A stretch of DNA of 64,000 bases from Stylophora pistillata (taxonomy: Eukaryota), in contig NW_019217806.1 in the NCBI RefSeq assembly GCF_002571385.2, positions 1,223,644-1,287,643 on the forward strand, given 5' to 3'. The notes beneath the pieces were generated by a model, which saw only the letters and a program-made list of their open reading frames with translations, had not been told where the DNA came from and did no database searches. Below, piece after piece: positions 6,061-27,203 of the stretch; the first letter of the stretch is position 1, and each line of letters starts with the position of its first letter. The translations under genes and the position numbers were made by a program.

Positions 6061-9000
6061 ATGGCCTTGGATGTAGCTGCGGTAATAGTGGTCAGCGTTG
6101 TTCTTTCGCTGTTGATTTTCCTTTATATTGCCCTATCGATAAGGTTCGCGCTGAAAAAGGCATCAGGGAGGATCCCTGACGATGACCCAAGGAACTCTTT
6201 CCTGTATCATACGGCAGCATGGCACCCTTTCGGCGTGGCAGACACCAAGTGCATCCCAATACAGCCCAGGACATACGATGAACTCAGAAGGGTGACTCAT
6301 CTTCATAATCTATTATTAATTTTATTATAAGCTAAATTGTACATGCATTTTGATTGGTTGTTACCTATGGTCTATTATAGGCCAGTCGCTTAGATGACGT
6401 CAGCATTAAAAACGTTTTGCATTTTTTATCATAAAAAGGAAAGATTCCATGTTGCCATGGGTCTGTACAGTAATAGATCACAGAAGACTCAAAATAGGGC
6501 AAGAATATGCGTGACACACTTGGCTGCGCCACTTTTTTGTACATACCACATTTTGACGTCATCCGTGATATATTGGCGATCAGACGCACGGCAACATGAA
6601 ATCTTTTTGTTAAACGATGGTCTCCCGTCAGTGGTCAGCTTCATGTTGTGGGCTCTTGAGAACGCGTGCGAGATAGAAGAAATTCTCATTTTGCATAAAA
6701 AGCATCAAACCGCAAAAGCTCTTTGAGTTTTTTCTGGTTCCGCCACGCAATGCTTTCTTCCTTCACGTTTTCGTGATGAGCTCTCTATAGGTCCCAGACT
6801 CACATACGCGACAATCTCCTCTCCTAAGTTTAACCTGTACTTAGATTGGAATTATCAAGCGATAACGGCTGAGATCACTGTTCAGCGCTGCACATGCGTG
6901 AGACTACTTGAATCATCTCGAGTGGAAGGGAAGGAAAGATTCCCTACTCGTCACACCTCGCGCTCCCCATATACAGTGGACTTTCTATCACCCAGAATTA
7001 ACAATGAGTCATATATGGTCAAAAGTATTTTTGTTATTGGTGTTAATTTTTGAGAGCCCCTCTTGACAAGTTGGATTCCCTCTTCGAATAGTATTATTAT
7101 TATCATTATTATTATAAATATTATTATTATTAAATAATGCATGTTCATAAGTACAAAGATTATTTTCAGAGCGAAGAGAAGCTGGTCGACTCAGGATCAA
7201 TGAAAATTCCACCAGTGAAGATTGCTGGAAAGATCAAACTGTCGCTTCAGTATGATTCTATGAGGTAACAGAGTGACGCAGAGTTTTGAGTACTTTTCAC
7301 TAGACTTTCACTGTATGTAGTATGCAATTTCTTCTTATATGGGTGATATGCAATTCAGTGATAAAAATATTAAGACTGAGACCAAGGGAACACTGATCTG
7401 GGGAACACCACTCGGTCCAGTTTTCTTTGCTGACGTCACTGCTCACGTCTAAACAAATCGAACTACAGTATTCAGGCGAATCTTTTCCCAGGCTCTACGC
7501 CTGGAGAAAGAGATCAAATACAAAAATTAGCGTTAGTGCGCATCTTGTACCCGGATCTCCTCAATTTTTTAATTCGGAAACGATTTGGGTACGAAATAAA
7601 AACGAACGCATGTAATTGGACGTAAGCGTAGGTACATAATCCCTGACATTTGGTTTACCATTGAAACCCAGGTCCACTCTTATGGCCACCATTCACACAG
7701 TCAACCTACAAGAGCTTCCTTCTACTCTTGACGCCAACTATTACGTCACACTGAAGATCCTGCCGCAGAACCATCGCTCGTTCCAGACCAAAGCGGTCAA
7801 ACGGGACAAGAGCCTCGACTTCAAGGAGACGTTTGAATTCCGAGTCACATTCGAGAAACTTAACGCACAAAGTTTGAAGATGACGTTATGTTGTTTCGAT
7901 CGATTTTCCCAGCATGAGCCTCTTGGTGAACAAACAGTGCATCTAGCTGACCTCGAGGCCCGTGGGCTCAGCCTCTCTCGAGAGATAACGTTATTTCGTG
8001 ATATTCATGCAGTTCGAAAGGTAAAACTTGTTGATTTTGTTACTTGCACTCAGGCTCTTGGTCGGTGGAAACGAGCATAAGGAGCAGGGGGGTAAGCTGC
8101 CGTTTCCAGACCACCTACAGTCACCATTTGCGCTAGAAATATTGCGCGAGGCCGACCAAATTGACCCCTTGCATATGCATGATATTTAATCCTTATTTTT
8201 CCGTGGGGGTGTGGAGAGTCTTTGCGCATTAATTTTCTTATAGTAAGCATGCTCACACTCAGTTTATGAGCAACTTTGGAACAACATTGTCTTGTTATTC
8301 CCATCTTTCTGATGTTCGTTTGCCTTAAAATCTATTCTTCGTCTTATTGTGACTATGTTCTTGTGAATTGTAGGCATCGGGTGTTCTTGGGGAATTGATG
8401 ATATCCCTGGGGTATCTCAGGCTAACTGAAAGGCTAACGATAGTGGTAATCCGGGCGAGAAACCTCCCTGAAAATGAAGACAAAGAGGATCCAGGCAAGT
8501 ACCTCTAATCAGATCCCCCCCCTCCCTATCGCCGGCCATGGAAAATTGGCGAAAACATTTGGATGTGTTGATATTTTGTTTTCTTTGCAACTCCCCACGA
8601 GCAGATATGGCGGTCTTCCCTCCCTCCCCCTCTTAATTCAGTTCCCGACAATGGAGAGCTGGTCAACCAGAATGAAACCTTACGTTTTTAAATGTTAATC
8701 TTTGGATGTTGCTCTTCAGTCTCACTTTGTCGCAATATATAGGTTCATTGCAGCCTGAAACATCTGGTCCCTCTCTTTCAGAAATAAAACTTCAAATTCC
8801 GACCTTTCGTCGATCCACAAAATTTGGTTTTTTGTCTTAATTGTCATTATCTCTTGTGTTTTGCTTGAAGCTAATGCAACCAAAACCTGAAAAAAGCGAA
8901 AATCTAGGTCTGTTGAGAAACAAAGTTACAACAAAAAGAGGTAATAAAATGTCTCAGTATTCGTTTGAAATATATTGATTTGCTTATAACTCTTTTTAAT

Positions 9001-9307
9001 AGCTCCATACGTTGAGGTCTCTCTTATTCACGAAGGACGAATCCTCAAGCAGAAAAAAACAGTCGTAAAGGAAGAAAATAGAAATCCTGTATTTAACGAA
9101 ACCCTCACATTTCACATTCCTGTTGGTATCCTTCACCAAACAAGCTTTAAGTTGTCCGTGAAAAGCCAGACTCAAAAGAGGACTGAGGACGATTTACTTG
9201 GAAAGATTTTTCTCGGCCCATCATCCACCGGGGGCGAGTTTGACCACTGGAATGAGATGAGGATCAACAACAAACCAATAGCACGCTGGCATAAGCTTCT
9301 TGATTGA
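6061..9307 (+). CDS. Synaptotagmin-like protein 1 (N-terminal TM, linker, C2A, C2B), about 366 aa
   Basis: Exons 6061-6291, 7170-7264, 7672-8020, 8374-8494 (GC donor) and 9003-9307 total 1101 nt, open. TM VAAVIVVSVVLSLLIFLYIALSI. C2A GKIKLSLQYD...FKETFEF...CCFDRFSQHEPLGE. C2B LGELMISLGY...ERLTIVVIRARNL...PYVEV...RNPVFNETLTF...DHWNEM...PIARWHKL. Confidence 0.9.
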
Positions 9308-26700: not shown

Positions 26701-27203
26701 GTAAATAGCAGAGATACATGAAGAAATATTAATTCTCAGTAGTCCAGCATTCATGAAAAGACAAACCCATCAACCATCTCTGACATCTCTGAAGGAGAAA
26801 AAAAAAAACATGCAGGGGAAAAAATTCTCTCATCAAATTTGGGCAGAAAAAGTTCACTTCGTTTGAGAAATCCTTACCAAGTGATAACTCGTCCCCAACA
26901 GGCCATTGAATAGATCAGTCGATATGTGCATCCAGCTCTCGCCTTTTCTCGTCTTTTTTGACGACATCTAAATAAAATCTTGACGGTATTATCCTTTTCT
27001 TTGGGGGGGGGGGGAAGATATATATTAGACATCCATACATCAAAGCTCAGTATTGTTTTCCTTCTATCTATTTCCAGGGTTCAACAGATCCACGAGAAAG
27101 AATGAGTAACCTCTCCATTATACAAAATACCTTGGCGGCGGAAAACAGTAGTCAGCCAGGAGCTACCGGACAACCAGCTGAACGCAGATGCAGTCAGTCA
27201 TGA
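23758..27203 (+). CDS. Synaptotagmin-like protein 3 (TM, single divergent C2, short non-C2 tail), about 279 aa
   Basis: GT-AG exons 23758-24054, 24880-24932, 25172-25286, 26247-26495 and 27078-27203 total 840 nt, open. TM ILYALPFVILFLLLAGLVSCLLIL-RRR. C2 PKLKFSIQYH...LLEVQLL...SFEIEMSYEELRLQTLQFCVMGFDEYSRQKVIGDVLLPLAEL...WRDI. Confidence 0.85.
25309..25397. mobile_element. Short palindromic MITE
   Basis: CAACCTCGTTCCCAGGGCTTTTCC...GGAAAAGCCCTGGGAACGAAGTTG forms a near-perfect hairpin. Confidence 0.8.

Follow-up and report, generated by a model that had tools for sequence, protein, structure and literature searches.

How much of a synaptotagmin can a genome do without? Most of the work of a synaptotagmin (Syt) in triggered fusion falls to C2B, and conserved genes which lack it are for this reason natural deletion experiments. 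Here we analyse a 64,000-nucleotide stretch of DNA from the coral Stylophora pistillata (contig NW_019217806.1, positions 1,223,644 to 1,287,643, forward strand; referred to as the window), in which an earlier note, made from the letters alone, had seen three co-oriented synaptotagmin-like genes, two of them with a single C2 domain. The note proposed an old local expansion that produced half-synaptotagmins of differing lipid and Ca2+ chemistry, possibly acting together in one secretory cell type. We think it rather probable that the locus holds three intact Syt-family genes, linked in both major coral clades and derived from one two-C2 hexacorallian ancestor, that their products serve as Ca2+-independent or weakly Ca2+-dependent membrane adaptors and not as fusion triggers, and that in gene 3 a farnesyl group replaces C2B. 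Likely to be new are the conserved cluster, a further C2B-less paralogue and, above all, the putatively prenylated tail of gene 3. Cnidarian forms with a transmembrane (TM) segment and one C2 domain, the linker motif and gene 1, as the match of Syt28, are already known (Craxton 2010).

Gene models and domain architecture

The following features of the three genes were modelled, with exons placed by splice sites.

Gene 1, 6061..9307, + strand: TM-linker-C2A-C2B, 366 amino acids, five coding exons (6061-6291, 7170-7264, 7672-8020, 8374-8494, 9003-9307)
Gene 2, 17620..20297, + strand: TM-linker-C2A only, 257 amino acids, three coding exons (17620-17970, 18554-18618, 19940-20297)
Gene 3, 23758..27203, + strand: TM-linker-C2A-tail, 279 amino acids, five coding exons (23758-24054, 24880-24932, 25172-25286, 26247-26495, 27078-27203)
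Gene 1 intron, 8495..9002, + strand: signature synaptotagmin intron by the gene-structure definition of Craxton 2010 (PMC2823689)
Last exon of gene 3, 27078..27203, + strand: putative leftover of the first C2B strand, still in register, followed by a polar, flexible tail that closes with C-x-x-S-stop

The three models are open and co-oriented, and all motifs quoted in the earlier note were found on the + strand at the predicted places. Its claims of a common N-terminal TM segment and of a common phase-2 intron were likewise borne out. Hydropathy gave a single peak per protein at residues 5-28 and no later peak, a TM helix is present in both available structure models (gene 2 and a gene 3 orthologue), and the intron interrupts the same codon after C2 strand 1 in all three genes. 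Pfam C2 scored above its cut-off for both C2 domains of gene 1 and for gene 2, and the largest gene 3 exon reached 21 bits against a cut-off of 22. For gene 3, an orthologue modelled by AlphaFold has a fold that matches C2A structures of synaptotagmins. The gene 2 model shows a complete eight-strand C2 domain with a predicted local distance difference test score (pLDDT) of about 90. In the gene 3 orthologue a low-confidence Arg-rich loop replaces strand 4, and the tail is a short helix followed by coil.

Gene 1 carries Pfam C2 matches in both C2A and C2B as well as the signature intron, and is a synaptotagmin by architecture and gene structure. Genes 2 and 3 lack the tandem C2 pair and are thus not synaptotagmins by architecture; having no C2B, they offer no place at which the signature intron could be scored. 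The most fitting name for them is synaptotagmin-derived TM-C2A proteins, and such proteins have been catalogued before. The single domain of genes 2 and 3 was also considered as a C2B and this was rejected, since C2A structures match better (1.7e-25 vs 4.9e-15). The statement that gene 1 alone kept C2B holds: tblastn of the gene models over the whole window showed nothing like a C2B exon downstream of gene 2 or gene 3, and the orthologues of both are single-C2 proteins. Hidden C2B exons were rejected as well. A genome search with the C2B exon of gene 1 gave 22 matches (25-41%) besides itself, none near gene 2 or gene 3, and those followed up were parts of other two-C2 genes.

Conservation of the three genes

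The S. pistillata RefSeq proteins XP_022779358.1 and XP_022779310-13.1 agree at 100% identity with the models of genes 1 and 2, respectively, and require two GC-AG introns, at 8495 (gene 1) and 17971 (gene 2). An open frame at 6727-7050 was rejected as an added gene 1 exon; it is superfluous, because the model without it equals the RefSeq protein. Both models are in addition 98-99% identical to proteins on Logan contigs of 1-4 kb, which must be spliced since they encode whole proteins in that length.

Single-C2 orthologues of gene 2 (248-261 amino acids) occur in Stylophora, Pocillopora, Porites, Acropora and Montipora. The stop lies inside the C2 exon, 0-3 residues beyond the same point, in 11 of the 11 orthologues printed; these counts leave out two longer matches (P0011, P0016) and one start-less match (P0015), which are probably mis-called genomic models. 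Gene 3 has orthologues of the same architecture in five other coral genera and in Nematostella (269-279 amino acids overall): proteins of 274-278 residues in Porites, Oculina, Acropora and Montipora, a fragment in Orbicella, and EDO44755.1 of Nematostella (269 residues), whose middle part appears mis-spliced. A spliced 275-residue orthologue lies on a 1.5-kb contig of an Acropora cluster. A search of the ESM Atlas returned one cnidarian single-C2 cluster (237 amino acids, 139 members) for both queries, which we treat as a lead only.

The half-genes are therefore old and conserved, as had been supposed, with the same truncation recurring across coral genera and gene 3 present in Nematostella also. 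C2 identity to orthologues in other coral families is 77-83% for gene 2 and 70-83% for gene 3, and that of the linkers 37-62%, a contrast which has the pattern of purifying selection. Linkage in other corals was deduced not from DNA but from accession numbers or locus tags that are close to each other and stand on contigs of the same length. By this measure all three genes stand in a row in Acropora palmata (XP_074622189-198), genes 1 and 3 are two tags apart in Porites harrisoni (003739/003741), and genes 2 and 3 are adjacent in Oculina (G024080/81).

Calcium sites

Ca2+ ligands were mapped onto the five aspartates of Syt1, and none of the four C2 domains retains all of them. C2A of gene 1 reads x-N-C-D-E, with one aspartate left plus a glutamate, and its C2B, by eye, about E-A-S-T-D, with about one aspartate. 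Gene 2 has DDDDK in four of seven rows (four aspartates) and DADDK in the other three (three aspartates). Gene 3 has glycine at site 3 and lysine at site 5 in 5/5 rows. The five acidic ligands that mark Ca2+ sensors of the Syt1/2/7/9 type are thus incomplete in every domain. Judged by the Ca2+-site geometry of Syt1, gene 2 might bind one Ca2+ ion and the other domains none. The genes differ in ligand pattern and in surface charge, in line with the differing lipid and Ca2+ chemistry suggested for them earlier.

The C-terminus of gene 3

A feature that went unnoticed in the earlier note is the conserved terminal CxxS of gene 3. All seven orthologues end in C-x-x-S (CSQS once, CSPS twice, CSTS three times, CYAS once). 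Cysteine stands at position -4 in 7/7 of them vs 1/115 other C2 proteins. Tail length ranges over 29-47 residues, and little is fixed between positions -5 and -15, where the best-kept residue is one proline, in 6/7. Gene 3 accordingly has what farnesylated CXXX sequences have, a cysteine at -4 followed by permissive residues. In the heat map of a yeast Ydj1 screen covering all CXXX sequences, in which three of the four gene 3 endings were looked up and CYAS lay outside that set, CSQS, CSTS and CSPS score 4.8, 5.1 and 4.9, compared with 4.6 for the known substrate CASQ and a cut-off of 3. Farnesylation of non-canonical, non-aliphatic CXXX sequences is documented (Kim et al. 2023, PMC10320760). 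On this evidence the terminal cysteine of gene 3 is quite probably prenylated.

These features allow a mechanism to be proposed. The lone C2A would bind anionic lipid; farnesylated at its terminal cysteine, the gene 3 protein would gain a second membrane contact in place of C2B and would hold a vesicle or compartment constitutively against its target membrane. That gene 3 bridges membranes in trans in this way is, on sequence features, a tentative proposal. Equally tentative is the fuller picture of a 'prenyl-synaptotagmin' that dates back at least to the anemone-coral split, its C2B swapped for a farnesylated tail and two membranes bridged by the TM segment and the Arg-rich C2A plus lipid anchor. 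It would belong to a cnidarian subfamily of one full gene and three half genes, one of them tailless, one with a prenylated tail and one with a disordered tail of 450 residues, and the C-termini of this subfamily would have been rebuilt so that docking in a rare cell type proceeds without Ca2+.

Origin of the cluster and probable loss of C2B

Two sequence features bear on whether the three genes form one family.

7943..8005, + strand: beta7-beta8 helix-loop insert of gene 1, with copies at 20214 (gene 2) and 26418 (gene 3)
6253..6267, + strand: pre-C2A linker motif of gene 1, recurring at 17938 and 23977; one form of the GRIKPELY motif found throughout the family

For comparison we used 115 other C2 proteins of 200-800 amino acids, taken from among the 150 best profile matches, and 20 family rows. 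The beta7-beta8 segment is 24 residues long in 20/20 family rows vs 1/115 of the other proteins, and a LAEL-xxx-G motif within it occurs in 19/20 vs 0/115. Because this length and motif are nearly absent from the 115 others, the insert is not due to chance. It forms a short helix in both structure models. The insert had been described as distinctive of the three genes, and it is present in all three, yet it also occurs in a fourth gene at C49:124948-131000 (+) of another scaffold. This gene shares the loop motif, linker motif, TM segment and phase-2 intron and has no C2B; its predicted 685-residue product consists of TM-C2A and a roughly 450-residue low-complexity tail rich in serine, arginine and glutamate. 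Since it carries the loop motif, the motif group extends beyond the cluster.

The linker motif and the phase-2 intron were rejected as marks private to the trio, both being found more widely. The linker motif, with an invariant QP and W-x-P upstream, is indeed present in all three families; by our reading it is equivalent to GRIKPELY, a type of motif which lies 20-50 residues ahead of C2A and is widely conserved across synaptotagmin groups (Craxton 2010, PMC2823689). The phase-2 intron is found in at least four further paralogues of the S. pistillata genome, and 13 others have strands 1 and 2 in one open frame.

C2A trees were built on about 130 columns, without Nematostella Syt28; Syt12, Syt13 and Syt16 were not identified by name, and several groups were labelled from a single named member or by our recognition. 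Each of the three genes is fully supported as an orthogroup, and the trio is joined, together with one Actinostola protein, at 96/73. The C49 gene forms a pair with gene 3 (81/87). No C2A domain of the trio falls within any of eight named reference groups, which speaks against an origin from separate ancient orthogroups. Sytalpha is a possible relative: with C2A plus C2B, gene 1 falls together with Sytalpha and two proteins from cnidarians (96/96), and by C2A alone the grouping has 76/86 for gene 2 and no support for genes 1 and 3. Of the old local expansion proposed earlier, the synteny, the common loop motif and the absence of orthogroup nesting stand; the intron and linker are more widespread than assumed, the C49 gene lies outside the cluster, and the trees leave the grouping undecided.

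The exon structure suggests how C2B was lost. A phase-0 intron follows C2A at the same codon in genes 1 and 3, and at this point gene 2 has one more codon and then a stop. Reading the end of gene 2 as a mutated donor (AAG|AT) was rejected because it is in the wrong register; codon register gives AAA|GAT-stop. The first 15 residues of the last gene 3 exon resemble those of the gene 1 C2B exon above shuffles in six of seven orthologues (p 0.0002-0.006), and in these six the fixed register beats every other one. We infer that C2B was lost by truncation at or just past the C2A/C2B phase-0 intron and, in gene 3, before the anemone-coral split.

Evidence against and alternative explanations

Several results count against the explanation we favour. 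The motif group was not recovered after 14 divergent coral paralogues had been added to the tree, monophyly was neither supported nor rejected by the approximately unbiased (AU) test (p 0.49, 0.49 and 0.31), and each gene, when placed singly among the eight reference groups, lands in a different unsupported spot. The Nematostella gene 3 tail has no significant C2B remnant (p 0.15), and the remnant as a whole is suggestive only, since the test was picked post hoc from the alignment and its rows are related. The yeast screen accepts a majority of CXXX sequences, so that its scores show permissiveness only (PMC10320760) and the weight of the prenylation argument rests on the fixed distance to the C-terminus. 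For gene 3, four of four S. pistillata RNA runs contained no spliced read, in a test that included no positive-control gene, and among the matches returned for it there was no named Stylophora protein.

One alternative, which we consider unlikely, is that the genes are divergent single-C2 paralogues whose C2A binds protein or lipid in cis, with the gene 3 cysteine palmitoylated, engaged in a disulfide or part of a short binding motif and no second-membrane anchor. A classical CaaX box has an aliphatic residue at a2, which the gene 3 endings do not (a2 is Q, P, T, T, T, A and P), and the Ras-based scores of CSQS, CSTS and CSPS are low (1.3-1.6), as they are for non-canonical substrates. Ser at -3, kept in 6/7 orthologues, could be explained by a binding motif, and a prenyl group could equally insert into the membrane that holds the TM segment. 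However, the distance from cysteine to end is fixed although the tail varies in length, the final residue is always serine, the upstream tail is polar and disordered, and non-canonical CXXX farnesylation has the precedent given above. If prenylation fails, what is left are well-supported yet ordinary single-C2 synaptotagmins, catalogued in 2010.

To the same degree unlikely, in our estimate, is that the genes represent separate older cnidarian Syt lineages which adjoin by chance and lost C2B independently, the loop being ancestral to a wider subgroup. The C2 domains of the three genes are mutually only 24-28% identical, the single-gene placements fall apart, the phase-2 intron recurs in at least four more paralogues, the C49 gene pairs with gene 3, and about 16 kb upstream there is one more Syt, unrelated in appearance. 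Against this stand the LAEL-xxx-G motif, found in none of the 115 other proteins, and the combination of loop length and motif, which recurs in one paralogue exon only across 18 genome stretches. In addition, no gene enters a named orthogroup with support, and a single clade is not rejected by the AU test.

A third, improbable explanation has genes 2 and 3 oligomerise with gene 1 or with Syt1/Syt7 in one secretory cell type, as natural partners of a dominant-negative or clamp kind. It would fit the conserved linkage of the cluster, and ten synaptotagmin genes, not tied to genes 1-3, are co-up-regulated in Pocillopora oral epidermis (PMC13581030). The expression data point the other way: many bulk data sets assemble genes 1 and 2, few assemble gene 3, and gene 3 is all but absent from the four RNA runs. 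These were checked over window positions 24800-27320 (exons 2-5) in two raw runs (about 2% and 6% read) and two sets of contigs. Depth was zero on exons 2-4 and at most one read's depth on exon 5, with intronic repeats otherwise. Word shares of 0.28-0.36 over genes 2 and 3 were rejected as gene 3 expression, being due to intronic repeats only. The models of genes 1 and 2 are backed by RefSeq proteins and spliced contigs, and gene 3, with no depth on exons 2-4 and no splice joint, remains predicted as a transcript in S. pistillata. The simplest reading is that its expression is rare or stage-restricted, and this does not speak for a joint role with genes 1 and 2.

That genes 2 and 3 are pseudogenes or mis-assembled pieces of ordinary two-C2 genes, for which a single N beside a duplicated stretch between them and the lack of S. 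pistillata RNA support for gene 3 could be cited, is highly improbable and largely refuted by the orthologues, given identical truncation in many species, spliced contigs, open frames, strongly conserved C2 domains and the stop within the C2 exon in 11/11 gene 2 orthologues.

Neighbouring features of the locus

The surroundings of the cluster contain the following features.

735-2558, + strand: 3' exons of a ZnT/SLC30 zinc-transporter gene, upstream of gene 1
18742-19655, - strand, in intron 2 of gene 2, and 62306-62767, + strand: presumably ends of reverse transcriptases of the long interspersed nuclear element (LINE) type, by our recognition; no Pfam match on two frames scanned
21845-21970 and 22313-22435: two copies of one stretch, each about 125 bases long, which flank a short tandem repeat and the N at 22311 between genes 2 and 3; possibly an assembly join
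30246-31073, - strand: two unexplained open frames (106 and 117 amino acids) that lie past gene 3 and ahead of the following + strand gene, without a Pfam match
31372-57900, + strand: a long gene which we take to be a chromatin factor, BAZ2B-like by motifs only; no Pfam match on two exons scanned
60700-63826, - strand: chondroitin-synthase-type gene (Pfam CHGN)

About 7-10 kb before the window, at C23:1213759-1216638 (+), lies a very divergent TM-C2A-C2B synaptotagmin with the phase-2 intron and without the loop motif, separated from gene 1 by the zinc-transporter gene. One database cluster mixes the zinc transporter with gene 1 orthologues and may contain a fused or read-through model. Synaptotagmin paralogues also lie close together on scaffolds C34, C49, C151, C295 and C319, so clustering is common for this family in the S. 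pistillata genome.

Comparison with known systems

Synaptotagmins with a TM segment and one C2 domain had already been listed for cnidarians in Craxton 2010 (PMC2823689). Its additional files 1 and 40 contain Nematostella Syt28, which resembles gene 1 in the linker motif, the C2A strand 3-4 words, the loop insert, the end of C2B and the TM-C2A-C2B order; orthology was read by eye from these supplements. Syt28 is listed with three introns and is uncharacterised there, and the supplement rows do not mention single-C2 neighbours. Among the 25 rows of additional file 40, no match to genes 2 or 3 was found by eye. The catalogued single-C2 cnidarian forms share a TM segment and one C2A-type domain with genes 2 and 3 but, as far as the printed sequences go, belong by eye to another lineage and lack both the LAEL-xxx-G loop and a terminal CxxS. 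The literature searched beyond Craxton 2010, which included few subscription papers, is silent on these genes under the headings of prenylated synaptotagmins, Syt28 and cnidarian single-C2 forms.

Sytalpha has the pre-C2A motif, as does gene 1, but unlike genes 2 and 3 it keeps both C2 domains, and it lacks the 24-residue loop. The Ca2+ sensors Syt1 and Syt7 (PDB 2R83, 6ANK) have the same type-I C2 fold and are the best profile and fold matches; they differ in their complete five-aspartate sites, which are incomplete in all four domains here, and in the presence of C2B, absent from genes 2 and 3. For the proposed lipid anchor, the closest parallels are proteins of other kinds. In complexins III/IV and in invertebrate complexins, a C-terminal prenyl motif localises an exocytic regulator to the membrane (PMC4611016), and shunt-type CXXX proteins such as Ydj1 (CASQ) share the non-aliphatic CXXX with gene 3 (PMC10320760). 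Complexins and Ydj1 are soluble, whereas in the gene 3 protein a prenyl group would be combined with a C2 domain and a TM anchor at the N-terminus. If this is true, a lipid anchor that replaces C2B would be a design without printed precedent in the literature searched. The Nematostella orthologue of gene 3 makes this design accessible to experiment, and the question further bears on the roles of the many uncharacterised cnidarian synaptotagmins.

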